DNA from: an uncultured Candidatus Saccharibacteria bacterium
GTDB lineage: Bacteria > Patescibacteriota > Saccharimonadia > Saccharimonadales > SZUA-47
Assembly (NCBI GenBank): GCA_964419675.1
Contig: CAYQPN010000002.1
Coordinates: 133,073-194,184, forward strand
Direction: 5' to 3'
DNA: 61,112 nucleotides
Below, in pieces: positions 17,776 through 57,024 of this stretch. The position numbers were made by a program, and so were the translations under genes. Under the pieces are notes generated by a model. The model was given only the letters and a program-made list of their open reading frames with translations, did no database searches and was not told the DNA's origin. Every line of letters starts with the position of its first letter. Within the stretch, counting starts at the first letter, position 1.

Positions 17776-17811
17776 TACACATATTATACGCTATAGCGTA
17801 TAATATGTGTA
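17776..17811. repeat. 36-bp perfect palindrome TACACATATTATACGCTATAGCGTATAATATGTGTA, copy 1 of 3
   Basis: Exact 18+18 self-complementarity, identical to the copies at 51150-51185 and 56989-57024. It lies between the convergent jag and GT4 3' ends. A second 9-bp-stem hairpin (AGGTGATTA / TAATCACCT) at 17811-17835 abuts it. Confidence 0.95.
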
Positions 17812-17825
17812 GGTGATTAGAGGGG

Positions 17826-18941
17826 TTAATCACCTAGGATTTGTTTGAAAACTTCTAGGTGCTGAGTGGCAAAGCGTCGCCAAGAGAATTTTTTTACGTT
17901 CTCGTAACCTTTATCAATCAATTTTTTGCGTAATGGTTCGCTTGAAATTACCTCATCAATTTTCTGAGCCATTTCATGCACATCAGCTGGGTCAAAATAG
18001 TGTGCCGCGTCACCTAGAACCTCAGGCAGGCAGGTTGCATTACTGCTGACAACTGGGCAACCATGCACCATAGCTTCTAGCCCCGGTAAGCCAAAACCTT
18101 CCGACAAACTCGGAAAAACGTAGGCCAAAGCATTTTGGTAATACCATTTTAGTTCCTCGTCTGGGATAAATCCTGTAAAAATAATGTCATCAAAGTACAC
18201 TTGTTTTTTTGCCCATTTTTCAAGTTGTTTTGAATGATATTCTCGTTTGCCAACCAATACCAACTTAAGTTCCGAGTGTTGTTCTTTTAAAAGCTCAAAT
18301 GCTGTAATTAGTCTCTCTAAGTTCTTATGCGGAAAGGCACTGCCGGTATACATAATAAACTGTTCTGGCGGGTCGCTAGGAGCTATTGCGGTTCCTGGCA
18401 AAGGTGGCTCAGAGGACTCCAGTGCAACAGTAGTTTTACGGTTCGTAAAAAGGTGGTATTTGTTTACAGCGTCAGCCACATATTGGGTTGGAACAATAAC
18501 GTGTTTGGCTGTACGGTGGGCGTGCCATAACAAAAACCTATATCCGTACATTCTTAAAGCGTGCAACCAACCAGGTAGCTTACCGGCGCGCACAAACTTT
18601 AACATCGTTAAGTCATGCGTGAAGGTAGTCTGTTTTTTGATATACATAACCGGCTGTTGTGGTGTAAGCGTAAAATGAATCAAGTCTACTTTTAGCCTAT
18701 AGAGTTGCCACGCATAAAATATTTGGTTAAAAGGGTTAAAGCTAAAGTTGCTAAATCTTGTAGTTTTAACACTAAAATTTTTGTTAACTGGCTTCCAGTC
18801 ATCACTTTTTTCTAACAAAATAGTATATTTATGCTCATTATCAATTTCTTGAAGATGTTCAAGCAGTCTTGCAACAGGGCGTCCGGTGCTAGCCCGGCGG
18901 ATACGCGCATCAATCACAATATGTTTTTTAGATTTTTTCAT
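17826..18941 (-). CDS. Glycosyltransferase family 4 (GT-B fold)
   Basis: C-terminal domain motif FPSLSEGFGLPGLEAMVHGCPVVSSN. Its start overlaps the mazF-like stop (ATGA). Confidence 0.85.
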   Translation of the reverse strand: MKKSKKHIVIDARIRRASTGRPVARLLEHLQEIDNEHKYTILLEKSDDWKPVNKNFSVKTTRFSNFSFNPFNQIFYAWQLYRLKVDLIHFTLTPQQPVMYIKKQTTFTHDLTMLKFVRAGKLPGWLHALRMYGYRFLLWHAHRTAKHVIVPTQYVADAVNKYHLFTNRKTTVALESSEPPLPGTAIAPSDPPEQFIMYTGSAFPHKNLERLITAFELLKEQHSELKLVLVGKREYHSKQLEKWAKKQVYFDDIIFTGFIPDEELKWYYQNALAYVFPSLSEGFGLPGLEAMVHGCPVVSSNATCLPEVLGDAAHYFDPADVHEMAQKIDEVISSEPLRKKLIDKGYENVKKFSWRRFATQHLEVFKQILGD

Positions 18942-19270
18942 AAAGCAAAGAACTTTTTCAAAATTATCTTAACCTCACCAATAACATCCAACCTAAGTTT
19001 CCCCAGAGATTTCACGATTATTGATCTGTCAGCCGTAAAAAGTTTATCAGGGCGAATGTAGCTTACAGAATGAAGCCCCCCTACCAAAAACGAACTGTCG
19101 TCTATTTGTACTTTCTTAAGCTCCCCGTCAGCGATACTGGTTATTTGGCACAAGACAACGTCATTAAAATCACTAAACCCCAATACTAGGGCAGGTCGAT
19201 TTTTGTGAGCTTTTAAATTTGAGAAGGGAAAGCTAGTAACAACAACAGATCCTACTGTAAGTGCTTCCAT
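18938..19270 (-). CDS. MazF/PemK-family type II toxin (endoribonuclease fold)
   Basis: GSVVVTSFPFSNLKAHKNRPALVLG ... LCQITS ... SYIRPDKLFTAD matches the PemK/MazF pattern. It overlaps the upstream AbrB-type antitoxin gene by 19 nt. Confidence 0.8.
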   Translation of the reverse strand: MEALTVGSVVVTSFPFSNLKAHKNRPALVLGFSDFNDVVLCQITSIADGELKKVQIDDSSFLVGGLHSVSYIRPDKLFTADRSIIVKSLGKLRLDVIGEVKIILKKFFAL

Positions 19271-19485
19271 GCTTCATCCTCACGAGGGTCATCCCAAAAT
19301 TTAGCAAGGCTAGCCTCGCTCATTATCGCCAACTCTCTATTAGTAAGTTCATCTTCTGGTAATATTCTCAAGCTTCCGTCTTCAACCACGAGCCTCGCTT
19401 TTTTTTCTAAACCAACCTGCCTTAGGATCGATTTAGGGATTCTTATTCCCTGAGAATTACCAATTTTAACTATATTTATATCCAT
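19252..19485 (-). CDS. AbrB/MazE/SpoVT-family antitoxin
   Basis: MDINIVKIGNSQGIRIPKSILRQVGL is the swapped-hairpin AbrB motif. Length is 77 aa. It lies directly upstream of the toxin. Confidence 0.8.
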   Translation of the reverse strand: MDINIVKIGNSQGIRIPKSILRQVGLEKKARLVVEDGSLRILPEDELTNRELAIMSEASLAKFWDDPREDEAWKHLQ

Positions 19486-19486
19486 A

Positions 19487-19523
19487 GTAATTACATTGTA
19501 ATTACATATATTGCTTATGTCAA
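19487..19523 (-). promoter_or_regulatory. Predicted mazE promoter (TTGACA-N17-TACAAT on the minus strand) overlapped by two tandem GTAATTAC palindromes (putative antitoxin operator)
   Basis: On the plus strand, TGTCAA lies at 19518-19523 and ATTGTA at 19495-19500, with a 17-nt spacer. GTAATTAC occurs at 19487-19494 and 19498-19505, which is an 11-nt period. The -10 element ends 9 nt before the ATG, implying a leaderless or near-leaderless mRNA. Confidence 0.55.
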
Positions 19524-19560
19524 GGTTTACCCTGAGCTAATTCAAGTATATTATTGGTGT

Positions 19561-22383: not shown

Positions 22384-22416
22384 TGCTTATAATAATTTAA
22401 CTCTATACTTAACACT

Positions 22417-22998: not shown

Positions 22999-23013
22999 GT
23001 TTTACGTCTTATT

Positions 23014-25483: not shown

Positions 25484-25527
25484 GATTACATTTTAACACT
25501 TACGTTCTCAGAATACTCGGGGTGCGC

Positions 25528-27638: not shown

Positions 27639-28439
27639 ATGAAAAAGATCTTTTCAAAACAAAATAGAGTTTTGTTATCAGAACTTGTAAGAACTGATTT
27701 TAAACTTAGGTATCAAGGCTCAGTACTGGGGTATACCTGGTCTTTGTTGCGACCACTACTTTTGTTTACAATTTTGTATATTGTTTTTGCAAAGTTTTTA
27801 AAAATCGGTAGTGACATTCAAAACTACCCAATCTATCTATTACTGGGTATTGTTTTATGGAGCTTTTTTAGCGACATGACCTCTCAAAGTCTCTCGTCAA
27901 TCGTAGCCAGGGGGGATCTTATAAGGAAAATTAGGATACCACGTTGGCTTATCATTGTTTCGACAAGTATGTCAGCACTAATTAATCTGGGGTTAAATCT
28001 TGTTGTCGTTTTAATTTTTGCACTTTTCACCAAGTTAGACCTGATGGCTACCAGTGTATTTTTACCTTTTATACTTTTGGAAATTTATATATTTGCACTG
28101 GGCGTATCGTTAATATTGTCGGCAATGTTCGTAAAGTATAGAGATATTAGTCACATATGGGAGGTTTTCTTGCAGGCTGGGTTTTATTTAACACCAATAC
28201 TTTATCCCATATCACTGATTACTAATATTACTGCTAGAGAATTCTTACTATTAAATCCTTTGGCTCAATCTATGCAGGATGCAAGGCAGTTTTTTGTTAC
28301 AAAACAATCGATAACACTGGGGGAGACATTTAACGGTGATGTTGTCTATTTAATACCTATCTCAATAGTTATTTTCACTCTAATAATTGGTCTATTGTAT
28401 TTCCGTTCACAAGCTAAAACATTTGCAGAGAATATCTAA
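27639..28439 (+). CDS. wzm: ABC-2 type polysaccharide exporter permease (Wzm/TagG-like)
   Basis: Six hydrophobic helices. N-terminal FKLRYQGSVLGYTWSLLRPLL is typical of ABC-2 permeases. The next base after its stop is the ATPase start. Confidence 0.85.
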   Translation: MKKIFSKQNRVLLSELVRTDFKLRYQGSVLGYTWSLLRPLLLFTILYIVFAKFLKIGSDIQNYPIYLLLGIVLWSFFSDMTSQSLSSIVARGDLIRKIRIPRWLIIVSTSMSALINLGLNLVVVLIFALFTKLDLMATSVFLPFILLEIYIFALGVSLILSAMFVKYRDISHIWEVFLQAGFYLTPILYPISLITNITAREFLLLNPLAQSMQDARQFFVTKQSITLGETFNGDVVYLIPISIVIFTLIIGLLYFRSQAKTFAENI

Positions 28440-29627
28440 ATGAAAGACCTAAAAGAAAACGCAATTGTTGTTACGAACTTGAGCAAATCCTTTAAGTTGC
28501 CTCACGAAATTCATAGCTCCATAAAAGGTTTGTTTGTGAATATATTCAGAAGAAAACGCACCTATGAAATGCAGAAATCTGTAGACGGAGTTAACTTTTC
28601 GATCAAGAAAGGTGAGTTCTTTGGCATAGTAGGAAAGAACGGTAGCGGAAAAAGCACACTTCTAAAACTAATTGCAGGTATTTATTCTCCGGATACAGGG
28701 ACTATTGATATAGACGGGAAACTCACTCCATTTATTGAATTGGGGGTAGGTTTTAACCCAGATTTATCTGGTAGAGAAAACATCTTTCTAAACGGAGCAT
28801 TATTGGGCTTCTCTCGTACAGACATGTTAAAAATGTATGACGATATTGTTAGTTTTGCAGAGCTAGAAAAGTTTATGGACCAAAAACTCAGGAATTATTC
28901 TTCAGGCATGCAGGTACGGTTGGCGTTTTCAATAGCTATTAGGGCTGACGCACCAATATTACTTTTAGACGAGGTTCTAGCCGTTGGTGACGCTGCTTTC
29001 CAGCGTAAGTGCTATAACTACTTTAAAGATCTAAAGAAAAAGAAAAAAACAGTAGTACTAGTTACTCATGACATGGATGTAGTTAGAGAGTTTTGTGACA
29101 GCGGAATTTTGTTTAATAAGGGTAAAATAGTATATTCCGGCGCCCCTCAGGATTTAGCCCGCGAATATTTAAAAATGTTTTCGCCAGTTGCGGGCCAAAA
29201 TGTAGTACAAAAAGATGAAGGTCCAAGGTGGGGTAAGGGTGCTATAAAATACAAATCTGCCAAAGTAACAAAAACAAAAACCGGGTACAAAGTAAGTTTG
29301 ATAACAGAAGCTAAAACTGAGGTAATAAATCCAATATTTGGATTCTTAGTAAAGGGCCCAGATGGTAAACCTATCTTGGGGACAAATAGTCTTATAAAAA
29401 AGCAATTTCCGGGGACGATTAAGGACAACAAGAAGGTCGAGTTATCTTGGGAATTTCCGGATCTTTTTACAAATGGGGTACATTCAGTAGATGTAGCAAT
29501 CACTCAAAATGACGGTGCAACAGTACACGATTGGTGGGAGTCTGCAATCACTTTCAATGTAATCGGCAAGGATAGATCGCCTTATATTATATTGCCTAGT
29601 ATCAAACTTAATATTAAACAGGGGTAG
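28440..29627 (+). CDS. wzt: Polysaccharide ABC exporter ATP-binding protein with a C-terminal glycan-binding (Wzt_C-like) extension
   Basis: Walker A GKNGSGKST, signature YSSGMQVRLAFS and Walker B ILLLDEVLAVGD. About 150 extra C-terminal residues (KYKSAKVTKTKTGYKVSLITE ... HDWWESAITFNV) are predicted beta-rich. Confidence 0.85.
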   Translation: MKDLKENAIVVTNLSKSFKLPHEIHSSIKGLFVNIFRRKRTYEMQKSVDGVNFSIKKGEFFGIVGKNGSGKSTLLKLIAGIYSPDTGTIDIDGKLTPFIELGVGFNPDLSGRENIFLNGALLGFSRTDMLKMYDDIVSFAELEKFMDQKLRNYSSGMQVRLAFSIAIRADAPILLLDEVLAVGDAAFQRKCYNYFKDLKKKKKTVVLVTHDMDVVREFCDSGILFNKGKIVYSGAPQDLAREYLKMFSPVAGQNVVQKDEGPRWGKGAIKYKSAKVTKTKTGYKVSLITEAKTEVINPIFGFLVKGPDGKPILGTNSLIKKQFPGTIKDNKKVELSWEFPDLFTNGVHSVDVAITQNDGATVHDWWESAITFNVIGKDRSPYIILPSIKLNIKQG

Positions 29628-29629
29628 TA

Positions 29630-30616
29630 ATGTTTAGAAGTAAAAAAGTAAAATTACCAATAGAATACCTATCTATGTCACCAGAAAAAGTTTGGAATAA
29701 AAACGAATGGCAAAGAGTAGATATGACAGTTTCGTGCAGGGATACGGATTATATAAATAAACGCAAAAATGCCGGAAACTACAAAGAAATTAACGGTCAA
29801 AAATTTCAAATAATGCACAACGGACTATACGTAAAAGCCGGAGGGTATCATGGCGAGTGGATGCAAAAAATAATTGAAAAATTAAAAGGGCACCACGAAC
29901 CGCAGGAAGAAAAATTATTTTATGAAATACTGAAATATCTCGACAAGTCTCCAGTAATCTTAGAACTAGGAAGTTTCTGGTCCTACTACAGCTTATGGCT
30001 ACTAAAAGAGTTCCCAAACGCAAAGTCGTTTTGTTGCGAACCGGACCCTGTAAATATGAAGGTTGGTAAGGCTAATGCAACAGTTAACGGACTAAGTGGT
30101 AGAATAAAGTTTATCAATGCAGCAGCTGGGGAGACCGACAAAGAAATAATTGATTTCAATCTTGATTCAGACCCTTCAAAAAAAATTAAGGCAAAAGTCA
30201 GGACAGTTGACTCTTTAGCAGAAGAATTTAAAATAAAAAAAATTGATATATTACACATGGACGTCCAGGGGGTTGAATTAAGCGCCTTACAGGGGTCTCT
30301 AAAAATGATAAAAGATAAAAAAGTTAGATTTGTTTTTGTTTCGACACATCATTATCTTTTTTCTGGTGATCCTTTGACCCACCAGCGGTGCAAGGATTTT
30401 CTTGTAGATAATGGGGCGCATATAATATCAGCGCATAATGTACTTGAATCTTTTAGCGGAGACGGGTTGATAGTGGCTTCATTTGATAAAAGAGATGCAG
30501 ATTTAATAATAGAAACTTCAAAAAACGATAGCGACAACTCTTTGTTCAGAGCCTATGAGTATGATTTATCAGAGCTATCAAACTATTATGGTAATCAGTC
30601 TAAGAAGAGGAAGTAA
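29630..30616 (+). CDS. FkbM-family SAM-dependent methyltransferase
   Basis: ILELGSFWSYYS ... VNGL ... ILHMDVQGVELSAL fits the FkbM pattern. Confidence 0.7.
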   Translation: MFRSKKVKLPIEYLSMSPEKVWNKNEWQRVDMTVSCRDTDYINKRKNAGNYKEINGQKFQIMHNGLYVKAGGYHGEWMQKIIEKLKGHHEPQEEKLFYEILKYLDKSPVILELGSFWSYYSLWLLKEFPNAKSFCCEPDPVNMKVGKANATVNGLSGRIKFINAAAGETDKEIIDFNLDSDPSKKIKAKVRTVDSLAEEFKIKKIDILHMDVQGVELSALQGSLKMIKDKKVRFVFVSTHHYLFSGDPLTHQRCKDFLVDNGAHIISAHNVLESFSGDGLIVASFDKRDADLIIETSKNDSDNSLFRAYEYDLSELSNYYGNQSKKRK

Positions 30617-30622
30617 TACTTT

Positions 30623-31519
30623 ATGGTTAAGGATAGTTTTATATCGTATGCGCAGAACCGGGAAGACTTAATTATTTATTCTTTGCTAAATAAAACTTCC
30701 AAGGGCTTCTATGTCGATATAGGAGCTAATAGCCCGGATATAGATTCAATCACAAAACATTTTTATATTGATGGATGGAGTGGGATTAATGTAGAGCCGA
30801 TTGGCAGGCTCTATGATGCGCTGAAGAAAGCGAGGCCAAGGGATATAAATCTTAATGTTGGGATAGGCAAAAAGACAGGAAAACTAACTCTCAGAGAATA
30901 TACAAATATAGATGGTCACTCTACTTTCTCGGAAGAAGTAAAAACTCACAAGGATACTAAACAGAAGCATGTCGACTACGAAGTAGAAGTCATCACTCTC
31001 CAAAAGCTTTTCAAGGATAATGAAGTCAGTAAAATAGATTTTCTAAAAATTGATGTTGAAGGTTTTGAAGAAGAGGTAATATTGGGTAATGACTGGGACA
31101 AGTACAGGCCCACAGTTGTTTGTATAGAGGCAGATCATTTTCATAAAGACTGGAATAGTTTGTTTACTTCTTGGGGGTATAGGTACGTAATGTTTGATGG
31201 GCTAAACGAATATTATATTGCTAATGAGTCCGATAGCTTACTTGATGGTTTTTCAGAGAGATTGGTGGAATTGGGGCATAACTCTCTTAAGGTTCACCAG
31301 CACAATGAGCGGGTAGACCACCAATTGACTGTAGAAAATGACAAAAAAAATATATCATTTCTTAAATCTAAAACTGAAGAGTTAGAAAAAGCGATACTTG
31401 ATAAAGACACAGAAATTGGAGTATTGAATAAAACTAGCTATGTGAATAGGCGCTATCTTGGTAGGGTGAAGATGGCCTTAGTTAGTTTGACGACTGGTTG
31501 GTTTCGTAAAACTAAATGA
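30623..31519 (+). CDS. FkbM-family SAM-dependent methyltransferase with a C-terminal coiled-coil tail
   Basis: FYVDIGANSPDIDS ... DFLKIDVEGFEEEV. The tail KNISFLKSKTEELEKAILDKDTEIGVLNK is heptad-like. Confidence 0.7.
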   Translation: MVKDSFISYAQNREDLIIYSLLNKTSKGFYVDIGANSPDIDSITKHFYIDGWSGINVEPIGRLYDALKKARPRDINLNVGIGKKTGKLTLREYTNIDGHSTFSEEVKTHKDTKQKHVDYEVEVITLQKLFKDNEVSKIDFLKIDVEGFEEEVILGNDWDKYRPTVVCIEADHFHKDWNSLFTSWGYRYVMFDGLNEYYIANESDSLLDGFSERLVELGHNSLKVHQHNERVDHQLTVENDKKNISFLKSKTEELEKAILDKDTEIGVLNKTSYVNRRYLGRVKMALVSLTTGWFRKTK

Positions 31520-31550
31520 TTTGTTTTGATGTTTTAACGTTTGTTAAATT

Positions 31551-31757
31551 TTAGCTCTTTGGTTTTTTGTCGATCTCAAGTAATTCTATAAGTTTCTCGT
31601 TTGTTTTTGTCGTTTTTTCCTGAAGATCTAATATCTTTTTGTCTAGTTCATGTAAAGCATGGTGCACGGCATGCAATTTTCTTGGGAGCAGTAGAACAGA
31701 AGTTAATAATCTGTACAGATACCCTACGAGTGGGATTTTTACTATAAGACTTCTCAT
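31551..31757 (-). CDS. Small (68 aa) hydrophobic/coiled-coil protein of unknown function, translationally coupled to the upstream GT4
   Basis: ATGA overlap with the stop of 31754-32947. Contains ALHELDKKILDLQEKTTKTNEKLIELLE. I recognised no homology. Confidence 0.4.
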   Translation of the reverse strand: MRSLIVKIPLVGYLYRLLTSVLLLPRKLHAVHHALHELDKKILDLQEKTTKTNEKLIELLEIDKKPKS

Positions 31758-32947
31758 ATTGATTTTCTACCTTTCTCGGTACCCTCTGAACTTTTAATGA
31801 TTGAGTGTAAAAATATTCTAGCATTTTCTTCAGTGTCCAATTTTTTGATTCTCTTGTACCCTTTAGTCTTTAGCCTATCAGCTACCTCGGCGTCTGAAAG
31901 TATGCTCTCAAGCCCTTTGGTGATTTCTTTCACATCCAAGGCGTTTACCGTAAGAGCCGCATCACCGACAGCCTCAGGGAGTGAGGAATTATTACTGCTC
32001 AACACAGCTGTTCCGCAAGCCATGGCTTCTGTAGGCGGGATCCCATAACCTTCATAAACACTAACGTACGCAAAAGCGCTTGCGGCGCTGTACAGGGCGG
32101 GTAGGTCTGCATCTTCTACGTAACTGGTGGGTAGAATAACCTTAAGTCCCTTACTCTGCATATTTTCAATCTGATTATGTATCTCGTTGTCCTTCCAACC
32201 TTTTGCCCCTACAAGTAGTAGAGCAAAATTCTTCTGTAGGTCGCTTTGCATATTCTCGTAGGCCTTCAGCAAAGACACTAAGTTTTTTCTAGGTTCGATA
32301 TTCCCTACAAATAATATGTAATCATCGAATAGTGAATATTTAGCACGTATACCTTTTTTTGTAGCTGGAGTTTGAGGGCGAAATTTTTTAGTGTCAAGGA
32401 TAGGTATAACTTTATCAATATTTTCAGGAGAATACTGGTAGTGGTCGGCGATTTCTTTTTTACTATTTTCAGAAATTGTAATTACACGTGTGGCACGTTT
32501 TATAGATATTTCAGTCTGGTCAGTCAAGAATTCTTGATTTCTTTCAGCAGAGAACTGGGGGAAATGGATAAAGGATAAGTCATAAATAATGGGGATTTGT
32601 GGGCTAAACAAAGTCGGCCAAGAACTAAAATGCGTAAAAACATATGTTTTTCTACCGAAAAATAAATCAATAGGTGGTATTAAACCACGTCTTTTTAAGC
32701 CGTTTGATATTCTTGGTGAAATAGGCATCCTTCTAATCTTAAAGTTTTTGTACCCGAACTTTTCTATACGCTTGCTTAATCTCCACGGCAAACCAATCTC
32801 TATTTTAATATTTGAATATTCTTTATCCTCTAGTAATTTATCGACTTCCTGAAGTAGTGAGGCAGTATAGTGCCCTATACCACTAAAATGGTCAAGCACC
32901 AGTACTTCACCATCTACAAAAACTTTAATCTTTTTTTGGGTCATCAA
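31754..32947 (-). CDS. Glycosyltransferase family 4
   Basis: VSVYEGYGIPPTEAMACGTAVLSSN (EX7E-type motif). It overlaps the neighbouring GT4 by 4 nt. Confidence 0.85.
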   Translation of the reverse strand: MMTQKKIKVFVDGEVLVLDHFSGIGHYTASLLQEVDKLLEDKEYSNIKIEIGLPWRLSKRIEKFGYKNFKIRRMPISPRISNGLKRRGLIPPIDLFFGRKTYVFTHFSSWPTLFSPQIPIIYDLSFIHFPQFSAERNQEFLTDQTEISIKRATRVITISENSKKEIADHYQYSPENIDKVIPILDTKKFRPQTPATKKGIRAKYSLFDDYILFVGNIEPRKNLVSLLKAYENMQSDLQKNFALLLVGAKGWKDNEIHNQIENMQSKGLKVILPTSYVEDADLPALYSAASAFAYVSVYEGYGIPPTEAMACGTAVLSSNNSSLPEAVGDAALTVNALDVKEITKGLESILSDAEVADRLKTKGYKRIKKLDTEENARIFLHSIIKSSEGTEKGRKSI

Positions 32948-34071
32948 TTTCCTAAATTACCTGTTTGTTTAATTATACCTAAACATTTAACAAAGTCTTC
33001 GTATGAATTATCAAAAGTAAACTGACGGCTGTTTTCTATACCCGCATCTCGCATCTTTTCTAGTCTTTTAGGGTCCTCTAATAATTTTGTTATCTTTAAT
33101 GATAAATCGACAAAATTTCCGGACTTAGCTAATAGTCCTGTTTTGCCGTCTAGAACACTATCTCTTAGTCCATCTGTGTCGTAGGCTACGGCGGGTACGC
33201 CTTGACTTGCCGCTTCGGTAGCAATAATTCCCCAGCCTTCTTTAACTGAAGTTATAACTATTATCGCCGAATCTCTAAGCAATTGTTCTTTCGCTTTTTC
33301 ATCTACTTTACCGTAAAACTTAATAGAGTCTGAGTAATTAGATTTTTTTGCGTGTGCAAAAACCCTTTTGCCGTATTTACCGGAATAATCACCTACTACA
33401 ACAAGTATTAAATCTGGTAGTTTTTGTACGGCCAGTTCAAATGCTTTTATTATATGCAAAGTCCTCTTCATTGGTCTTACTGACCCCAATGAGATTATCG
33501 TTCGGGTGCTCTTTTTTGCATGTTGTGTTGTAGTTTTAATATTCATGCCAATCCTGAATGTTTTTATCGCGTCTTGTCTGAACCCATACTTTGCTAAATC
33601 TTTCTTTGTACTATCAGATTCAGTTAGTACCAGATTATACTTATTTCTAGACAGGTATCTTAGTAGCAGGGGTTCTAACAGGTACCCAGCGAGGGAAAAG
33701 GGGAATATCATCTGGTAAAACCATACTTGTCGCGCTAACTGGTAGGTTAAAAGCACTGTTGGCATTTTATCGTATTTAAAACCAAGAAAAGGGATGGTGT
33801 TCATCTCGTCAATAATTAAATCTGCCCAACCACCCATTGATTTTTTATATAGTTTTTTAGCTTTGGTATAAACGGTATATTTATTGCCTGTTCTGTATAT
33901 CTCAACTCCATCAATTACAGATTTTATATCAGAATTGTCTGGTCTAGACGTAATCAATCGTACTGAATGTCCGTCTAAAATAAGTCTTTTTCGTATTTCT
34001 GTAGATACAAGTTCCGCACCACCTGAAAGTGGATGCTCAATATCTTTCCAAGACAGCCATAGTATATTCAT
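32944..34071 (-). CDS. Glycosyltransferase family 4
   Basis: TSVKEGWGIIATEAASQGVPAVAYD. Confidence 0.85.
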   Translation of the reverse strand: MNILWLSWKDIEHPLSGGAELVSTEIRKRLILDGHSVRLITSRPDNSDIKSVIDGVEIYRTGNKYTVYTKAKKLYKKSMGGWADLIIDEMNTIPFLGFKYDKMPTVLLTYQLARQVWFYQMIFPFSLAGYLLEPLLLRYLSRNKYNLVLTESDSTKKDLAKYGFRQDAIKTFRIGMNIKTTTQHAKKSTRTIISLGSVRPMKRTLHIIKAFELAVQKLPDLILVVVGDYSGKYGKRVFAHAKKSNYSDSIKFYGKVDEKAKEQLLRDSAIIVITSVKEGWGIIATEAASQGVPAVAYDTDGLRDSVLDGKTGLLAKSGNFVDLSLKITKLLEDPKRLEKMRDAGIENSRQFTFDNSYEDFVKCLGIIKQTGNLGN

Positions 34072-34076
34072 TTATT

Positions 34077-35033: not shown

Positions 35034-35058
35034 TTTAATCTAACTAGTCCTTAGCTAC

Positions 35059-36303: not shown

Positions 36304-36435
36304 TATATGTATTCTACATTAATGCCCTAGTGCTCAGAACCTATTTAGAGTAAGTGAAATTAACAATTCTGTAAGGGATGTCTAGATGGTAATATATATA
36401 TAACTTTTCAGGGTACATAATAAGAGGGAATATTC

Positions 36436-40443: not shown

Positions 40444-42523
40444 CTTTGGTATAAAAGCTTAGTCCTAAATCATTAAACCAAGTTAAATTATTTGCAATAA
40501 TATTAAATCGCTCATGTCGTTCACCTGGGGCATTCGGTGCAGTCATCCAGAACTCAAATGTACCTGTCTGCCCAGGAGCCACAGTCGATTCTTGAAGTAG
40601 TGCAGGCCGCGTACCGCTTAACCATCCACTACTTGGTGAGAATACACTAGGTCTTTCGTTTGGGCTAGTGGTCCCAACCAATAACGCGTTCGTGCCAGTG
40701 TTTCTCCATGTAATAGTTCCAGTATTTTTAGCTTTAAATCCAACATACGTCCTTTCTCCAGGCACTAGATTACCCAGATTCTTAACAGTTGTCTTGGTTT
40801 GGTCGGTATAAGCGTACTGGCTAGTCATTTGCCATGTATATGTTTGTGGCAAAATGTTTGTGTAGAAACTTAGCCCAGTATCGTTAAACCAACTATAGCC
40901 ATTTGCAATTAGACCGAACCGCTCATGCCGTTCGCCCGGAGCATTTGGTGCAGTCATCCAGAATTCGAATGTACCGGTCTGCCCAGGAGCCACAGACGAT
41001 TCTTGAAGTAGGGCAGGTCGCGTACCACTTAGCCAACTGCTGCCTGGCGAGAAGACGCTAGGCCTTTCGTTGGGGCTCAATGTCCCCACTAATATCGATT
41101 GTGGACCAGTGTTACCCCACGTCATATTACCCGTATTTCTGGCAGTAAACCCAATATAGGCTTTTTCACCAGGGAGTAAGTTGTTTAGAGACCTAACGCT
41201 GGTCTTGGTTTGGTCAGTGTAGGAATATTGAGACAACATTTGCCAACTGAAAACCGCTGGATTGGTTTGCATACTATAGAAAAGTCCAATATCCTGCATC
41301 CAGAGAGAGCCTTCAATGACAGGTGCAAAATATTCAGAAACCTGAGCCCCATTTAGAGGTGCCTTGAGCCAAAAGCTGAATGTTGCAATCCCTTCCGGGG
41401 CAACAGTGGCCTCCGCCATTGTTGCAGGCCTCGAACACGATAGCCAAGTGGGGTCACAGAACACGCTTTGTCTTTCATGTGGCCTTACAGTACCAAACCG
41501 TATTGGATTAGAGCCTGTATTGCTCCATGATTGGTTTCCTGTGTTTCTGATACTAATTGTTGCATACACTCTATTATTTGGTGCCATGTTGGAAGTCCCG
41601 ACTGGTACTGTTCTGGTTTGGTCGGTGTGAACTGTTTGAGACACTAAAGACCAAGAGTAATTTGCGTTTTGGGTGCTACCAAACCAGTCATTGAAGAGGC
41701 GCCAGAAGTTGCGGTTGCCGTAGGCACTACACGAATCTCCAGTACCGTATAAGTTATTTAGGGCGGCGGTATTTGGTTGGTAGGGGGTATAAATGTATAA
41801 ACTAGCTGTTGCTTGGTTTTCAATAAAAACATTTGAGCTGCCACAACCGCTAAGATTTGGGTTGTAATAAATTGTGTTGTTGCGATTAGCCTTGTAGTTA
41901 TAACTATTAGGATTAGCCTCGTATCGTCTAAAGGCTTTGGCTGCTTGGTAAACTTGATTGAAGAAGCCGTAATACTCAGAATCACATGGTGCGGTGTCTG
42001 GACATCCGTAGCCGGTGGCACTTCGGTATTGCGTGTCCCATGGCCAATCGTCGGTAACCAGGCTTTGTTCTTTTTGGAGTAGAACTATTAGTACTTGAGG
42101 GTTTATACCACAGGCACGAGAAGCGTCGTAAATTATTTGGGCAGATGACTTTGTGCCGGCTGTAATGCTTCCTGTACATAAGTCGCTTCCGCTATTAGTA
42201 ATTGCAGGTACGGTTTGCGAGTAGTCTTTCAAACATATAAACGGCGCTGGGTGACCTTGAGATGCACTATATGAAGCACGAGTTGTGCCATATATAGGCT
42301 GAGTACCATTGGTATCACAAACCGGCACTTTTGAATTAAGAAAATCTTGAATCTGCTGAATTGTCATCGAACTTGAGTTATAAAATACAGAGTTATCAAT
42401 TATTCGGCCGGCTTGAAAATCTGAACCAGATAGAGCGCTTGCAGAAGCTGGCAATAATGCAGAAACTAGAAAAAAACTTGCTAAGAAAAGTAGTTTTCCG
42501 AAGATTAAATTTTGCGTTTTCAT
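40436..42523 (-). CDS. Secreted surface protein: conserved N-terminal domain plus three tandem ~135-aa Ig-like (NBR1-like) repeats
   Basis: Signal peptide LLFLASFFLVSALLPASASA. N-domain contains GINPQVLIVLLQKEQSLVTDDWPW ... ATGYGCPD. Repeat units 2 and 3 share identical stretches, for example GTRPALLQES.VAPGQTGTFEFWMTAPNAPGERHERF. Confidence 0.65.
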   Translation of the reverse strand: MKTQNLIFGKLLFLASFFLVSALLPASASALSGSDFQAGRIIDNSVFYNSSSMTIQQIQDFLNSKVPVCDTNGTQPIYGTTRASYSASQGHPAPFICLKDYSQTVPAITNSGSDLCTGSITAGTKSSAQIIYDASRACGINPQVLIVLLQKEQSLVTDDWPWDTQYRSATGYGCPDTAPCDSEYYGFFNQVYQAAKAFRRYEANPNSYNYKANRNNTIYYNPNLSGCGSSNVFIENQATASLYIYTPYQPNTAALNNLYGTGDSCSAYGNRNFWRLFNDWFGSTQNANYSWSLVSQTVHTDQTRTVPVGTSNMAPNNRVYATISIRNTGNQSWSNTGSNPIRFGTVRPHERQSVFCDPTWLSCSRPATMAEATVAPEGIATFSFWLKAPLNGAQVSEYFAPVIEGSLWMQDIGLFYSMQTNPAVFSWQMLSQYSYTDQTKTSVRSLNNLLPGEKAYIGFTARNTGNMTWGNTGPQSILVGTLSPNERPSVFSPGSSWLSGTRPALLQESSVAPGQTGTFEFWMTAPNAPGERHERFGLIANGYSWFNDTGLSFYTNILPQTYTWQMTSQYAYTDQTKTTVKNLGNLVPGERTYVGFKAKNTGTITWRNTGTNALLVGTTSPNERPSVFSPSSGWLSGTRPALLQESTVAPGQTGTFEFWMTAPNAPGERHERFNIIANNLTWFNDLGLSFYTKVN
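40439..41260 (-). repeat. Intragenic tandem duplication with a 411-bp period (two high-identity units; a third, diverged unit lies at about 41261-41670)
   Basis: CGCTCATG anchors at 40509 and 40920 are exactly 411 nt (137 codons) apart. Long near-identical runs include GGTGCAGTCATCCAGAA and CTGCCCAGGAGCCACAG.CGATTCTTGAAGTAG. Confidence 0.85.
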
Positions 42524-49634: not shown

Positions 49635-49635
49635 G

Positions 49636-51084
49636 CTAGTCTACTTTCTTTGAAAAAGCTCTTCTGACTACTTGGACGACGGTTTTCATAAGTATCACAA
49701 TGTCCATCCAAAAGCTCCAATGTTGGGCGTAGTACATATCTAATTTACGGCGTTCTTCAAACGGAATGTCTCTTCGTCCTGATACTGCGGCTAGACCAGT
49801 TACTCCTGGCTTAACACTTAAAATTACGTTTTTCTTATGAAATAAATCTATTTCTTGAGGGATAAGTGGGCGTGGGCCTACAAGGCTCAAATCACCGCGT
49901 ACGACGTTAAAAAGCTGAGGCAGCTCATCGATGCTAGTTTTTCTTAAAATACGTCCTATCTTGCTAATTCGAGGATCGTCAATTAGAAAGTCGCCGTTTT
50001 CACGGTATTTTTTTATTAGCTCTGGCCGCCCCATTTTTGTAAAGACCTGCTCCGGTGTAAGCCCACCACTATACTCGGTTTTGTGCGTGCGAAATTTATA
50101 TAAGCCAATTTCTGTGTTATATCGGGACATTCTGGTTTGACGGTAGACAGCTTTGCTTCCTCCGAATATTGTTAGGACCAGCCATGTGATTAGCAGGATA
50201 GGTGATACTAGTAAAATCAGTAACGAGCCAGCTGCTAGATCAAACAGTCTTTTAGCAACTCGACCCCAACCCGTAAGCGCGGTTTGATGGACAGCAACCG
50301 TTGGGATGCCTTCGAATAGATTAACCTCGATACTACCCACAAACAACCGGTTGTTTCCTGGGACAAAACGGTAGGCAATGTGATGTTCCTGAGCGTAGGC
50401 AAGAATTTCATCATTACGGTCTTGGTCTGCAAATAGTTCTGTTTGAACGATGGTGTGAATATCTGTATTTTTGAGGTGTTTCGAAGCTTCTTCAAAGTCT
50501 TTAAACTGGATATCTTTATCAACGCCTGAGAAATTTGTTCTTTTGTCGCCAACTATCCCAACTACTCTAAACCCTAGCATGGGGTTAGATAGTTTTTCAG
50601 CTAACTCCCCGGTAATCCTGGTTGTACCAATAATAAGTACGTTAGAGATGCCAATGTCGTAGCTGAACAAGATTCTTCTAACTGCTCTTGCAATTGTTCT
50701 AAAGAGTAGCGTAAGCAAAAAAGCAAAAGAGAAACCGTACGCTGTGACTAAGCGAGCCGGAAAAACAGCGCGGTTTAGAACATATTCGCTACCTATTAAG
50801 AACAAGATACCTATAAAGGACCCCATTAAAAGCATGCTGGCTTCTTTAAACCTATTTTCATAGACTTGGGCGCGGTATAAGCCAAGCAGTGCGTAAATTA
50901 TTAGCCAAAAAACCAGTAAAACAGCAACAACGCCAATGTACCCCCATGCGGATATTGGTTCGAGCAGGGGTCGGTCGTCAAGTTTCACGCGAATTACGTA
51001 AGCTAAGACAAATGCTAAAACAACTGCAACAAAGTCTGTGACTAGAAGGATAAAGCTGTAAAGTAGCGATGCGCTGTGTTTCAT
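49636..51084 (-). CDS. Polyprenyl-phosphate glycosyl-1-phosphate transferase (WbaP/large PGT family); initiating enzyme
   Basis: Four or five N-terminal TM helices, a central Rossmann-like region, and the C-terminal catalytic motif IDELPQLFNVVRGDLSLVGPRP. Confidence 0.88.
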   Translation of the reverse strand: MKHSASLLYSFILLVTDFVAVVLAFVLAYVIRVKLDDRPLLEPISAWGYIGVVAVLLVFWLIIYALLGLYRAQVYENRFKEASMLLMGSFIGILFLIGSEYVLNRAVFPARLVTAYGFSFAFLLTLLFRTIARAVRRILFSYDIGISNVLIIGTTRITGELAEKLSNPMLGFRVVGIVGDKRTNFSGVDKDIQFKDFEEASKHLKNTDIHTIVQTELFADQDRNDEILAYAQEHHIAYRFVPGNNRLFVGSIEVNLFEGIPTVAVHQTALTGWGRVAKRLFDLAAGSLLILLVSPILLITWLVLTIFGGSKAVYRQTRMSRYNTEIGLYKFRTHKTEYSGGLTPEQVFTKMGRPELIKKYRENGDFLIDDPRISKIGRILRKTSIDELPQLFNVVRGDLSLVGPRPLIPQEIDLFHKKNVILSVKPGVTGLAAVSGRRDIPFEERRKLDMYYAQHWSFWMDIVILMKTVVQVVRRAFSKKVD

Positions 51085-51149
51085 TACTTCTTATTCTACA
51101 CCAATAAAAATCTTAATAACTGTTGAAAACACCAAATATAATTCAATAA

Positions 51150-51185
51150 TACACATATTATACGCTATAGCGTATAATATGTGTA
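51150..51185. repeat. 36-bp perfect palindrome, copy 2 of 3, centred in a divergent promoter region
   Basis: Identical 36-mer. It sits 65 nt from the WbaP-like start codon on the minus side and 67 nt from the gtrA start codon on the plus side. Confidence 0.95.
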
Positions 51186-51252
51186 GGTATAGCAACGGAA
51201 GTTGTTAATTGTAGTTTTATGGCACATGTCGTAAGATAAAAGCATAAACAAA

Positions 51253-51738
51253 ATGCGTACAAACAAAAAAACAAGAAAGTTTATCGTCCAGTTCACTGAA
51301 TATATGATATCTGGTGGTGCTTGGTTTTGGGTTGGCTATGGGGCCTTTGCGGTATTAGACAAGGTGTTTCACGTTCCATTTTGGCCAACCAAAATCTCGA
51401 GCTATATTATTGGTGCTAGTGTTAACTTTTTACTACAACGCTATTGGGTTTTCAAACAGAAAAAATCTGGCCATAAAGAACTTGGCGATTCGGCAAAGAG
51501 ATACTACAGTTTAATGTTTGTTAATTTTATTTTAGATCAAGCGATTGTTGGTGGTTTGCGTGAAGTAGGAGTTTCGCCGTATATAGGGCAATTTATTTCT
51601 AGTGGGTTTTTCACCGTTTGGAACTGGCTCTGGTATAGTTTGTGGGTTTTCAAAAAACAGAAAAAATCACTATCCTACAAAAAACAACACGCGCCATTGC
51701 TTCATAGACATAAGAAAGTGAGGATTAATAGAAAATGA
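51253..51738 (+). CDS. gtrA: GtrA-family small membrane protein (polyprenyl-P-sugar translocation associated)
   Basis: Four hydrophobic helices. FTEYMISGGAWFWVGYGAF ... NFLLQRYWVFK is typical of GtrA. Confidence 0.75.
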   Translation: MRTNKKTRKFIVQFTEYMISGGAWFWVGYGAFAVLDKVFHVPFWPTKISSYIIGASVNFLLQRYWVFKQKKSGHKELGDSAKRYYSLMFVNFILDQAIVGGLREVGVSPYIGQFISSGFFTVWNWLWYSLWVFKKQKKSLSYKKQHAPLLHRHKKVRINRK

Positions 51739-52148
51739 GTACTAGACCAACTAAAAAACAGTTTGAACTACTAGAATATCTTAGAGGTTTTATTGCTGAA
51801 CATGGGTATAGCCCAAGCTACAGGGAAGTAATGCGTGGGTGTAATTACACATCGGTTGCTACAGTTGCGCTGCACATAAATAACCTGATAAAACGTGGGC
51901 ACGTTATAAAGCGAGATAAATCTGCCCGTTCATTGGAAGTTGTTAGCGGAGTAGATGAAAAATCTAATGCAACCAGTAATCACAAACATGAGCTGATAAA
52001 AGAAATCGAGGCAAGATTTAAAACTTTAGAGAAAGAAGTAGAAGAAGATATTTTAAACGAAGTATATGTCTTGGTTGGGTCTCTAAAAATCCTTGGCCAC
52101 GTAGACGCCGCCCGCGCCTACGCCGCTAGAATTAACCAGCTAAACTAG
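51735..52148 (+). CDS. LexA-N-terminal-domain (winged HTH) DNA-binding protein lacking the S24 peptidase domain
   Basis: TKKQFELLEYLRGFIAEHGYSPSYREVMRGCNYTSVATVALHINNLIKRGHVIKRDKSARSLEV parallels the LexA DNA-binding domain. The C-terminal 60 aa are helical/coiled-coil with no Ser/Lys dyad or Ala-Gly site. ATGA overlap with gtrA. Confidence 0.7.
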   Translation: MSTRPTKKQFELLEYLRGFIAEHGYSPSYREVMRGCNYTSVATVALHINNLIKRGHVIKRDKSARSLEVVSGVDEKSNATSNHKHELIKEIEARFKTLEKEVEEDILNEVYVLVGSLKILGHVDAARAYAARINQLN

Positions 52149-52943: not shown

Positions 52944-53060
52944 ATAGTAAACCTCCTATTTTCATATGATTGTATAGAAACTTAACGAACTAAGAAAGTA
53001 TAAGCGGTAAGAAAGTCTACATGTTAAGCGTTTTATATTTTTCAGTATAGAATAATAGTT

Positions 53061-55253: not shown

Positions 55254-55348
55254 CAAAAAACGTTAATTATACTAACGGCCGTTAAAAACATTAGCGCATT
55301 GAAAAAATGCTAGCGTTGGGGGATACTGGGCTTTATGAGGGTTAACTT

Positions 55349-56971
55349 GTGAAGTTACTTTTCTCAATTTTTATCACCTTATCTATACTTGTTCAGTTTG
55401 TAGTTATTAGTCCTAAAAGCGCATCGGCTATCTCTGAAAACGTTTTAATTATGCAGTTGCAGACTGGTGGTGCCGGCACGGGCACGACTGCTCAGGAGTT
55501 TATACTTCTTTATAATAATTCTGACGTTGAGGTGAATGTTACGGAGTGGTGTTTGAGCTATAGCTCTGCCTCAAACGGGTCTACGTTTACGAAACTTGCC
55601 TGCATGGTTCCGCCCAACGCAACAACAGAACTTTGGGTTGAGGCTGATGGGTACGTGAGTTTTGCAACAACGGAGTTTATCACTGCTAACCCGGGCTTTG
55701 TACCAGACTTTACTTTCAGCTCAGCTGTATCCATTGCCGGGACTGGTGGGCATGTCAGGCTGGTTAACGAAACGGCTGTTGAGGTTGATAGAGTTGGTTG
55801 GGGTGGCGCTGTTGCGCCGGAAGGCTTAGCTGTTCCAGCGCATGCATCCGGGCAAGTATTGGGGAGAAACTCTCTGGAGGTAAATCTAGACACAGATGTA
55901 AATCTTGTAGGCTTTAGCTCAAGAGCAATACAGAGCTCTATAGTTAGTGGAATTTATGAAAAAGAAATAATTATAGATTCATGCCCAAATATAGCCGATA
56001 CACAAATTGTATTACCTGTTGGTTACCTCAAAGACGAATCGGGCGATTGTTTTGAAGATTTTTGCCCAAATCTTGATGGTTTACAGACCGTAGCACCGGT
56101 AGGCTTCTATAAACCGAGTGGAGAAGAAGATTGCATCGCTGTGCCTCTTGAAAACTCAATATTATTTATCACTGAGTTGTTACCAAATGCACCGAGCTAC
56201 GACACAGGGCAAGAATTTATTGAGATTTATAACCCAAACGCCGTCGTGATTAACTTAACTGGTTACAAACTACAGTTGGGCCCAAGTTTTACAACGCAGT
56301 TTACTTTTGCTAGTGGGATAATCGAGCCGGGTCAGTTTTTAACTTTTTCAGATACATTTACTGGGATAGTTCTGCCTAATACTTCCGCAACATCGGTTCG
56401 ATTAATTGCACCAGCTGGTAATTTAGCTAGCGAAACGGGGACATATTCTGACGCTGGCGATGACGTTTCTTGGGCTTTGGTTGAAGATGTTTGGATTTTT
56501 ACAAACCAGATTACACCCGGAGCTGCCAACAAACCGTATCTTGTTCCAGTAGAAAATGAAGTTCTGGGAGTTACAACCGTCTATGCTCCTTGCCCAGCAG
56601 GTAAGTATCGAAACCCAGAGACAAATAGGTGTAAGACTTCAGAAACTGCCGTTTCTCAACTTGTGCCGTGTAGTGAAGATGAATATAGAAACCCAGATAC
56701 AAATAGGTGTAATAAACTCAGTTCGGCCACCTCAAGTTTAGTGCCCTGCAAAGAGGGGCAAGAGCGAAATCCGGATACTAATCGCTGTAGAAATGAGTCA
56801 GTTTTGGGAGAAATTAGCGACCTTACAAAAGTAACTGATATTCCGGTTGAGTCGACAGAGGGTCGGGTAAACTGGTTTATAGTATCCTCAGCATTTCTGG
56901 GGGCTTTCGGTTACATGTTGTATGAATGGCGCTTTGAACTTAGGCAAAAGTTACTATTAGCTCGAAGGTAA
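55349..56971 (+). CDS. Surface protein with two lamin-tail-like domains, three Cys-bounded RNP.TNRC repeats and a C-terminal TM anchor
   Basis: GTG start and a signal peptide. LTD-like segments are VLIMQLQTGGAGTGTTAQEFILLYNNSDVEVNVTEW and LFITELLPNAPSYDTGQEFIEIYNPNAVVINLTGY. Repeats are PCPAGKYRNPETNRC, PCSEDEYRNPDTNRC and PCKEGQERNPDTNRC. Anchor is WFIVSSAFLGAFGYMLY. Confidence 0.65.
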   Translation: MKLLFSIFITLSILVQFVVISPKSASAISENVLIMQLQTGGAGTGTTAQEFILLYNNSDVEVNVTEWCLSYSSASNGSTFTKLACMVPPNATTELWVEADGYVSFATTEFITANPGFVPDFTFSSAVSIAGTGGHVRLVNETAVEVDRVGWGGAVAPEGLAVPAHASGQVLGRNSLEVNLDTDVNLVGFSSRAIQSSIVSGIYEKEIIIDSCPNIADTQIVLPVGYLKDESGDCFEDFCPNLDGLQTVAPVGFYKPSGEEDCIAVPLENSILFITELLPNAPSYDTGQEFIEIYNPNAVVINLTGYKLQLGPSFTTQFTFASGIIEPGQFLTFSDTFTGIVLPNTSATSVRLIAPAGNLASETGTYSDAGDDVSWALVEDVWIFTNQITPGAANKPYLVPVENEVLGVTTVYAPCPAGKYRNPETNRCKTSETAVSQLVPCSEDEYRNPDTNRCNKLSSATSSLVPCKEGQERNPDTNRCRNESVLGEISDLTKVTDIPVESTEGRVNWFIVSSAFLGAFGYMLYEWRFELRQKLLLARR

Positions 56972-56988
56972 AAATAGAACATCGCTAA

Positions 56989-57024
56989 TACACATATTAT
57001 ACGCTATAGCGTATAATATGTGTA
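56989..57024. repeat. 36-bp perfect palindrome, copy 3 of 3
   Basis: Identical 36-mer. It lies 17 nt after the LTD-protein stop and 24 nt before the ATG at 57049. Confidence 0.95.

Follow-up and report, generated by a model that had tools for sequence, protein, structure and literature searches.

Three identical palindromes near the replication origin of a Saccharibacteria chromosome: probable copies of a small dispersed repeat with promoter-like arms

The 61-kb stretch of DNA studied here (61,112 nucleotides, hereafter the window) comes from a Saccharibacteria chromosome, of which it represents the replication-origin (oriC) region, according to its Pfam annotation and, for the phylum, the names of its homologues. 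The 36-mer TACACATATTATACGCTATAGCGTATAATATGTGTA, referred to as F1, is present in three exact intergenic copies, located at 17776-17811, 51150-51185 and 56989-57024. With moderate confidence, these palindromes are interpreted as recent copies of a small, selfish and non-autonomous dispersed repeat, comparable to MITEs (transposable elements of the miniature inverted-repeat type) or repetitive extragenic palindromic (REP) sequences, whose arms mimic native YGTATAAT −10 regions, with probable outward transcription and a read-through hairpin of approximately -22 kcal/mol.

Every window copy is a perfect 18+18 palindrome without a spacer. No further match to the 36-mer with up to 3 mismatches was found in the window, 0 being expected according to 100 dinucleotide-preserving shuffles, and no solo half-sites of the palindrome were found there at up to 3 mismatches. 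Background perfect palindromes elsewhere in the window have arms of at most 8 bp. These results agree with the three identical, perfect and intergenic palindromes described in the initial annotation of this DNA. Many degenerate copies, which would have indicated a plain scattered repeat, were looked for in the window using an nhmmer family profile, and none were found (the next match has E>40).

The extent of 36 bp originally assigned to the element holds in that 36 bp are identical in all copies, but the real shared unit is slightly longer and asymmetric: it consists of A + 36 bp + G(G/A)T in 3/3 copies, in one orientation. Outside this unit the flanks of the three copies are unrelated, as expected from the earlier description of a discrete element. 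The window copies end in a flanking G, whereas the copy in locus L004 and the copies in Sungbacteria (both described below) extend the palindrome with a T at that position. Given that the asymmetric A...G(G/A)T flank is common to the three copies, they appear to descend from one master copy. Since three identical 38-40-nt units are not attainable by point mutation, they were copied.

Related genomes were fetched via homologues of Jag and of a LexA-like protein, which resulted in loci L026/L032 (a 942-kb JGI contig), L028, L029/L030 (GCA_030428125.1), L031, L033/L034 and L035-L037. In the syntenic relatives, Jag is 80-84% and the LexA-like protein 78-82% identical to the window proteins. Gene order is kept: the type IV secretion system, recF, dnaN and dnaA are followed by rnpA, yidC and jag, with jag convergent to a GT4 glycosyltransferase gene; further on, glmS, GT4 and wbaP read leftward and gtrA, lexA-like, GmrSD_C, comEC and LTD read rightward. 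F1 is absent from the orthologous jag/GT4 and wbaP/gtrA spacers in L026, L028, L029 and L031-L035, and no perfect palindromes with arms of at least 13 bp were found in approximately 150 kb of the relatives' loci. The jag/GT4 spacer has 123 nt in the window, 0 nt in L028 and 43 nt with a different hairpin in L029, and contains a small open reading frame (ORF) in L026. The wbaP/gtrA spacer has 168 nt in the window, 110 nt in L031/L032 and 81 nt in L033/L034 (which lack gtrA). Judging from these comparisons, the copy 2 palindrome is an addition within the variable part of the wbaP/gtrA spacer. Given that the comparable spacers of relatives are empty and that the window copies share a derived asymmetric flank base, the very recent copying of a REP-like or palindrome-associated element, one of two options in the initial annotation, is the option these data favour.

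Other insertions occur in the same region of the relatives. A GIY-YIG endonuclease-like gene is inserted in the wbaP/gtrA spacer (L035:2451-2729), and a reverse-transcriptase gene stands in place of comEC/LTD (L032:9942-11000); these spacers accept selfish DNA.

Copies in other genomes were searched for with a half-site scan of one genome per species, in which approximately 17 chance matches are expected for an 18-mer, and with a metagenome scan for the pattern CACATATTATAC-N0-14-GTATAATATGTG. Since 24 or 18 bases were set in advance by the search patterns, these patterns are partly responsible for the constancy of the outer arms, and only variation in the centre and in the extensions is unbiased. 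The half-site scan yielded two relevant matches, both in the Saccharimonadales metagenome-assembled genome JBLFWT01: an identical full copy of F1 after ligA (L004), and a decayed copy between nadD-like and kefB-like genes (L002), in which the inner left arm is replaced and a 9-nt loop is present. Matches in an alphaproteobacterium, a Pirellulales genome and Sporolactobacillus were attributed to chance, given the approximately 17 expected. An 18-mer match in Nanosyncoccus (L005), considered as a solo-arm promoter, lies inside the ORF of a 1213-aa glycosyltransferase (LLAYNMCKK) and was likewise discarded as a chance match.

The metagenome scan recovered 14 contigs with the F1 core, representing five loci. 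An exact-protein look-up assigned these contigs to Ca. Sungbacteria / Parcubacteria GW2011_GWB1_52_7, a different phylum-level lineage of the Candidate Phyla Radiation (CPR). The Sungbacteria contexts (tRNA/MGMT-like, pth/mfd, response regulator/subtilase, and two hypothetical genes) are unrelated to those of the window, and tblastx of the Sungbacteria contigs against the Saccharibacteria loci gave no useful matches. Phage, viral-contig and plasmid collections contained no meaningful F1 matches. As far as these searches reach, the distribution of F1 is patchy, with presence in distant lineages and absence in the window's near relatives.

Polymorphism is also seen within Sungbacteria. Ten contigs with pth-mfd spacers that lack F1 were fetched via the Mfd cluster representative, and three of them were aligned; L012/L014/L020 have an additional segment of 119 nt that contains F1 and is placed midway along a small quasi-palindrome present in the empty allele. 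Across loci, approximately 3 contexts are convergent, 1 is divergent and 6 are tandem, a mixture expected of any tolerated intergenic insert; the differing contexts reported initially for the window (copy 1 between convergent, copy 2 between divergent and copy 3 between tandem genes) were recovered as well. Taken together, the empty sites, patchy distribution, insertion/deletion polymorphism, decayed copy and mixed contexts are the hallmarks of a dispersed repeat that is small and non-autonomous. Among the properties by which MITEs are recognized, F1 presents terminal inverted repeats, multiple copies, unrelated flanks, and presence/absence at orthologous sites.

The same comparisons bear on whether F1 is an operator or binding site of a dimeric protein, be it the LexA-like protein (which has only the LexA DNA-binding domain), a nucleoid or roadblock protein, or a ParB/KorB-like protein with origin-proximal sites. 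The perfect dyad symmetry, centre included, suits such a site, as do the location of copy 2 upstream of the gtrA-lexA-like operon, the DNA-repair neighbours at other loci (mfd, ligA and MGMT-like), and the fact that all three window sites are 2.6-42 kb from dnaA on the same side. However, the LexA-like protein is a core Saccharibacteria gene product (5668 homologues, 73-82% identity), the relatives keep it without the palindrome upstream (L031-L035), and no LexA-like homologue is found near F1 at the other loci. Given that the gene is kept without the palindrome, it is not F1's conserved operator partner. Neither binding by this protein nor a conserved operator or promoter under strong selection, both raised in the initial annotation, is supported by these observations. 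Furthermore, the identical 38-nt units must be copies instead of products of point mutation, F1 positions are not conserved between lineages, and Sungbacteria have several perfect-palindrome families that differ in half-site spacing. As for a ParB-like system, the 16-bp parS consensus, even allowing up to 3 mismatches, is absent from the window and from the relatives' origin regions, and no ParB is encoded in the window. An operator is considered quite improbable.

The manner in which F1 varies is informative about how its symmetry is maintained. Ten loci were aligned over 54 columns, and wherever a position of the 38-bp element varies, both arms change. Columns 24/31 are A-T or G-C (6 to 4) and columns 26/29 are T-A or G-C (7 to 3), while columns 10/45 change from T-A to C-G in L007 and columns 9/46 from A-T to C-G in L020. 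Unpaired cells are limited to the A/G flank common to the three window copies. The alignment has a covariation score of 0.175 (shuffles: 0.107±0.022), a value attained by 1/500 shuffles. At the pth-mfd locus, L020 presents 4 differences from L012/L014 in 600 nt, and 2/4 are a mirrored complementary pair, the chance of which we estimate at approximately 3e-4 (46/600 × 1/599 × 1/3 × 6 pairs). The centre of F1 remains palindromic (TATA or GATC). On sequence grounds, this pattern fits one-step arm-to-arm templated correction, i.e., template switching during replication. One-step template switching has been documented, and it makes and keeps perfect stems and produces apparent "compensatory" double changes (PMC8794818). 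F1 resembles hairpins of that origin in the mirrored pair among 4 differences in 600 nt and in its palindromic centres. Template switching would account for the upkeep and growth of the palindrome, yet not for its copying to new loci. The symmetry, centre included, would be kept in this manner and not by per-base selection.

Regarding transcription, both strands of all three copies read TACACA-17-TATAAT, which agrees with 10/12 consensus positions and yields the top promoter-like scores in the region. The near-consensus sigma70-type promoter in each direction proposed by the initial annotation is supported at this level. The −10 hexamers occupy positions 8-13 and 24-29 of the 36-mer, 10 bp apart. 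Three of the six promoter directions are aimed at a gene (wbaP, gtrA and AHSA1); copy 1 has no such target either way, nor does copy 3 have one to its left. Native promoters here look like extended −10 or leaderless types, such as TGGTATAAT before gmd and TGGTAGAAT-aaacctaagt-ATG before rpmH, and "ctaagtATG" is common to the AHSA1 and rpmH promoter regions. In related loci, YGTATAAT is a recurrent native −10 context, and a native leaderless promoter of L031, cctgTAGCGTATAATataactATG, matches the F1 arm TAGCGTATAAT over 13 nt. Although the arms do not have the extended −10 TG typical of this genome's promoters, they plausibly work as promoters, as their likeness to these sites suggests.

The promoter reading is plausible as a secondary property; a promoter role needed by the neighbouring genes is not supported. 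The block TATGATAAAAGCATAAACAAAATRCGTACAAACAA precedes gtrA/lexA-like in all relatives (L031, L032, L033/L034 and L035), each without the palindrome, and its conservation indicates the operon is independent of F1. In the window, both gtrA/lexA-like and AHSA1 have promoter-like sequences of their own downstream of the palindrome (Table 1).

An unlikely, although credible, alternative is that F1 is a functional, portable bidirectional promoter cassette, i.e., a "mobile promoter" made of two promoters fused back to back and retained for driving the flanking genes. Beyond the motif and the native context of its arms, the start codons of two divergent genes are at almost equal distances from copy 2, and that of AHSA1 is 25 nt downstream of copy 3. 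At least 10 Sungbacteria contigs have an invariant copy upstream of an MGMT-like gene (-64 to -25), and no second −10 lies between the two. The conservation of a 66-nt block on the other side of this copy also favours the cassette. Near-identical promoter-like sequences are known before unrelated genes, some being common to distant taxa (PMC3575422), and F1 arms resemble such mobile promoters in matching native YGTATAAT promoters. F1 differs from them, however, in being a perfect palindrome and in being present also where there is nothing to transcribe: copy 1, L002, L011 and the Sungbacteria copy of group B are between convergent genes. The downstream genes in the window have their own promoters, conserved in relatives free of F1; the extended −10 TG of native promoters is missing; and a promoter requires neither symmetry through the centre nor mirrored changes outside the hexamers. 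Moreover, the known class of symmetric bidirectional promoters has overlapping −10s and start sites at distances of 7-25 bp, most often 18, and is over-represented in recently acquired DNA (Warman et al., bioRxiv 10.1101/2020.01.31.928960). As in that class, DNA symmetry places −10s on both strands of F1, yet these are separate by 10 bp and the predicted start sites are approximately 36-40 bp apart.

The 66-nt block (L007:882-947, L019:12617-12682 and L015:2966-3031) is 98-100% kept, while the coding DNA of these lineages is approximately 12% different. It contains a mini-ORF of 15 codons and a small hairpin with a U-rich stretch after it, and may be a small RNA driven by the palindrome.

Transcribed from either strand, F1 would form a stem of 16 bp closed by a loop of 4 nt, at -21.7 to -24.3 kcal/mol (z -5.5 to -6.8), which is consistent with the long hairpin noted initially. 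This raises the question of whether F1 acts in RNA, as a hairpin for 3'-end formation or processing in both directions, be it by RNase III cleavage, by stabilising the transcript or by terminating it in an unconventional manner. At 9 of approximately 10 loci at least one gene 3' end adjoins F1, the mirrored substitutions keep the stem paired, and symmetric Correia repeats are RNase III substrates (PMC2649163). As a terminator, however, F1 was not called by the terminator scan; its stem is AT-rich instead of GC-rich, a U tract is missing and the flanks are not T-rich. Sungbacteria have canonical GC-rich terminators, and F1 of group B is between the two that belong to a pair of convergent genes, which means it is neither the terminator nor the promoter of those genes. 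The terminator role considered in the initial annotation is not supported. For any RNA role, copy 2 is between two 5' ends, a self-complementary loop is unnecessary and yet the TATA/GATC centres stay palindromic, and F1 is absent from the same gene ends in relatives. Rfam at gathering thresholds, applied to the window and seven loci, reported only tRNAs and no match at the palindromes. An RNA function is regarded as improbable.

F1 was also considered as a site of site-specific recombination or telomere resolution that would bracket two exchangeable cassettes: the 33-kb surface-polysaccharide cluster, at the ends of which copies 1 and 2 are exactly located, and the 5.8-kb segment from copy 2 to copy 3. 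The core ATTATACGC..GCGTATAAT is also found in telRL, the protelomerase site of phage N15, and structural-variant breakpoints in Sungbacteria coincide with palindrome centres. Against this, Pfam annotation of the window shows neither a recombinase nor a protelomerase, three resolvable sites (here within 40 kb) would fragment one chromosome, the relatives keep the cluster boundaries without F1, and the phage and viral collections gave no meaningful matches. In telRL (NC_001901; L022:1276-1331), the 9-nt half-site match is real, but the spacing is wrong: the TATAAT boxes of F1 are 4 bp further apart, i.e., the telRL centre is 4 bp shorter. Given this spacing and the lack of a protelomerase in the window, the telRL candidate was dropped. 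Its likeness to F1 is probably coincidental, and we consider a recombination site extremely improbable.

Sungbacteria contain further palindromes and mobile DNA related to F1. Downstream of mfd, a 140-nt long hairpin with F1-type arms is present (L012:2323-2463, L014:207-346 and L038-L047). Its arms are F1 arms with one mirrored T>C, between which there is a TA-flanked hairpin insert of approximately 96 nt (z = -6.6). The first 22 nt of the insert recur elsewhere, and its motif GGTTCGACGAGCTCACCACAAG is found again at L019:6004-6025, L014:8052-8110 and L014:8186-8206, and in L041 the insert has an internal 46-nt deletion. A sister palindrome, F2, with the halves TGCTATTATAATACGCTA and TAGCGTATTATAATAGCA, has its central 16 nt, ATACGCTATAGCGTAT, in common with the window F1. 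Along with F2, families F3-F5 are perfect, loop-less and AT-rich palindromes; F2-F4 are each present at two or more loci, and F5 only at one (Table 1). All coexist in Sungbacteria with ordinary GC-rich, looped terminators with A/T tracts. An IS256-like insertion of approximately 1.1 kb splits F2 exactly at its centre (L053:936-2030, also in L054 and L056). It has a 330-aa ORF with a weak Transposase_mut match, imperfect terminal repeats and an 8-9-bp duplication, (G)CTATAGCG. This element (L053) is the only insertion sequence (IS) seen, and its ends are unrelated to the F1 arms. Other small mobile DNA here hence targets palindrome centres, i.e., the TA-flanked insert at F1 and the IS256-like element at F2, which lends support to the mobility of F1.

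These families allow for a broader proposal, which is speculative and which we hold to be quite unlikely: F1 and F2-F5 would form a CPR-wide class of "self-perfecting" palindromes that moves between Saccharimonadia and Sungbacteria by a structure-dependent route, with no dedicated transposase, delivering two-way promoters. Candidate routes would include hairpin or cruciform intermediates, insertion at palindrome centres, and imported single-stranded DNA.

In comparison with known systems, the closest parallels to the dispersed repeat proposed here are the Correia elements (CREE) of Neisseria and MITEs in general, which are also non-coding, multi-copy, mostly intergenic, and made of inverted repeats with unrelated flanks. 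Correia elements have TA or CA termini, outward promoters and RNase III cleavage, and no known transposase (PMC2649163). F1 shares with them the TA and sometimes CA termini, the outward promoter-like ends, a symmetric hairpin that RNase III could cut, the presence/absence among relatives, and the lack of a known transposase. The two differ in that CREE have approximately 105-155 bp with a core and an IHF site, whereas F1 has 36-54 bp and is a coreless, perfect and loop-less palindrome; furthermore, their sequences are unrelated, target duplication is not demonstrable for F1, and its copies amount to three in 61 kb. REPs and REPINs (hairpin-forming REP pairs) are short extragenic palindromes that spread within genomes, undergo two-sided change and are often between convergent genes (PMC3733652, PMC8049555). 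F1 resembles them in its short extragenic palindrome, within-genome spread, pairing kept by two-sided change and occurrence in convergent spacers. However, it has no consistent GTAG/CGTC tag (GTAG follows only the window copies and L020, while L004 and groups A, B and D have GTAT), and REPs are imperfect, GC-rich and looped whereas F1 is perfect, AT-rich and loop-less. Unlike REPs mobilised by the REP-associated tyrosine transposase (RAYT), F1 is not accompanied by a Y1/RAYT gene in the window (Pfam).

In the mechanism proposed for the favoured dispersed-repeat interpretation, F1 would be a minimal non-coding element of two inverted arms only, copied into three permissive intergenic spacers of this Saccharibacteria lineage, and not an ancestral regulatory site. 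We infer copying by a trans-acting enzyme; in their flanks (TA...TA) and termini (CA...TG), the copies are reminiscent of Correia and Tc1/IS630-type elements. Alternatively, copying might follow a hairpin-dependent, single-strand route. Once inserted, a copy would probably start outward transcription both ways, its arms mimicking the native −10 regions, and would add the 16-bp hairpin of approximately -22 kcal/mol to read-through transcripts. Predicted side effects, which may be co-opted locally, are additional promoters upstream of wbaP, gtrA-lexA-like and AHSA1, along with antisense RNA in the jag/GT4 region.

Several observations weigh against this interpretation. The window ORFs include no transposase, RAYT, recombinase, protelomerase or ParB (Pfam), nor a partner transposase with ends matching the F1 arms, which for a partner IS would be ends matching TACACATATTATAC, and next to the other F1 copies no transposase, RAYT or recombinase was found but the unrelated IS256-like element. 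TA flanks the CACA...TGTG core in most copies, yet TA is itself palindromic, so a target-site duplication is ambiguous. In L007 (CA/TG) and L018 (GA/TC) these positions vary as mirrored pairs instead of direct repeats. To our knowledge, F1, at 36-54 bp, is shorter than any described MITE, and only three copies are visible, within the 61-kb window. In addition, F1 looks like the sole promoter of the Sungbacteria MGMT-like gene, where it may have been co-opted, so that some copies may be functional. A functional constraint common to both CPR lineages could also explain why the arms are nearly identical in the two.

The genomes of Saccharibacteria and other members of the CPR are tiny and regarded as repeat-poor. 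No description of small dispersed repeats in CPR genomes was found in the searchable literature. F1 is not a new regulatory system; the main points of note are its occurrence in CPR, its sharing by two distant CPR lineages, and its clean mirrored mutation. Given that F1 recurs in two such lineages, it could mark horizontal exchange among CPR. It is also a clean example, found in nature, of palindromes that undergo mirrored mutation in one step. For annotation and strain-level variation, its predicted promoters could add transcription, antisense included, beside surface-polysaccharide and competence genes. Finally, F1 breaks de Bruijn assemblies, with Logan unitigs ending inside it: unitig L023 (SRR7369911, same strain, as is L021) begins within the copy 3 palindrome (TTATACGCTATAGCGTATAA...), which indicates F1 fragments k-mer assemblies.

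The features of the window and the sister palindromes are presented in Table 1.

Table 1. Location of F1 copies, associated promoter-like and hairpin features, neighbouring genes and sister palindromes (window positions unless a locus is named).
Feature	Position	Strand	Remarks
Copy 1	17776-17811		Shared unit 17775-17814; between convergent jag/khpB (17118-17702, +) and GT4 (17826-18941, -)
Rightward −10-like TATAAT, copy 1	17799-17804	+	Minus-strand mirror 17783-17788; no gene to drive either way
Separate hairpin (TAGGTGATTA gaggggt TAATCACCTA)	17810-17836		10-bp stem, 7-nt loop; abuts copy 1
Copy 2, left side	51150-51185		Shared unit 51149-51188; divergent wbaP-like sugar transferase gene (49636-51084, -) at left
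Copy 2, right side			gtrA (51253-51738, +), then LexA-like protein gene (51735-52148, +)
Rightward −10-like TATAAT, copy 2	51173-51178	+	Faces gtrA; minus-strand mirror 51157-51162 faces wbaP
Conserved promoter/leader block (taagATAAAAGCATAAACAAAATGCGTACAAACAA)	51232-51266	+	Upstream of gtrA/lexA-like; starts 46 nt downstream of copy 2
Copy 3, left side	56989-57024		Shared unit 56988-57027; LTD-domain protein gene (55349-56971, +) to left
Copy 3, right side			Tandem AHSA1/SRPBCC gene, ATG at 57049, to 57441, +
Rightward −10-like TATAAT, copy 3	57012-57017	+	Faces AHSA1; minus-strand mirror 56996-57001 faces LTD gene 3' end
Native AHSA1 promoter-like sequence (GTGTATAAT-ctaagt-ATG)	57034-57051	+	Leaderless-type geometry; just downstream of copy 3
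Type IV secretion genes	845-10664
recF, dnaN, dnaA	11335-15159	-
Likely oriC region	13533-13785 and 15160-15676
DnaA-box-like 9-mers	15221, 15281, 15314, 15335		Between dnaA and rpmH
rpmH	15452-15589		Absent from ORF list (<60 aa); followed by rnpA, yidC, jag
Surface-polysaccharide cluster	17826-51084		33 kb
F2-F5 perfect loop-less AT-rich palindromes	L015:3535-3570, L019:12061-12100, L007:326-365, L009:4809-4846; L009:1091-1130, L014:419-458; L009:12973-13000, L014:7526-7553; L011:11223-11256

The polysaccharide cluster is followed by gtrA, the gene of the 137-aa LexA-like protein, a comF-like gene, GmrSD_C, comEC, the LTD protein gene, AHSA1/SRPBCC and small genes. The right arm of the separate hairpin next to copy 1 is the 3' end of the GT4 gene, stop codon included, and this hairpin is probably the native one of the convergent jag/GT4 spacer. 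Other hairpins adjoin F1 copies elsewhere too, in L011, L018 and the group B copy.

Jag/KhpB has a long acidic C-terminal tail (window 17560-17746), which most relatives do not have. The E/P-rich frame of this tail runs on past the stop codon (EQIDPVEEKSNPEE, up to a further stop), which suggests the tail is recently truncated or variable.

Within the polysaccharide cluster, the gene content between the conserved ends differs in relatives. A MazE/MazF toxin-antitoxin pair (18938-19485) directly follows the conserved GT4 gene. The GC content is 0.355-0.373 at 28000-38000, in the part with wzm/wzt, a FkbM methyltransferase and glycosyltransferases, versus approximately 0.41 elsewhere. The gene of a 695-aa Ig-like surface protein (40436-42523, minus strand) has tandem repeats of approximately 411 nt with 77% identity (40446-41626). 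Among the Sungbacteria loci, a 21-bp perfect inverted repeat flanks a tRNA gene (L009:8775-8872), next to an N-terminally truncated large serine recombinase (8969-9943).

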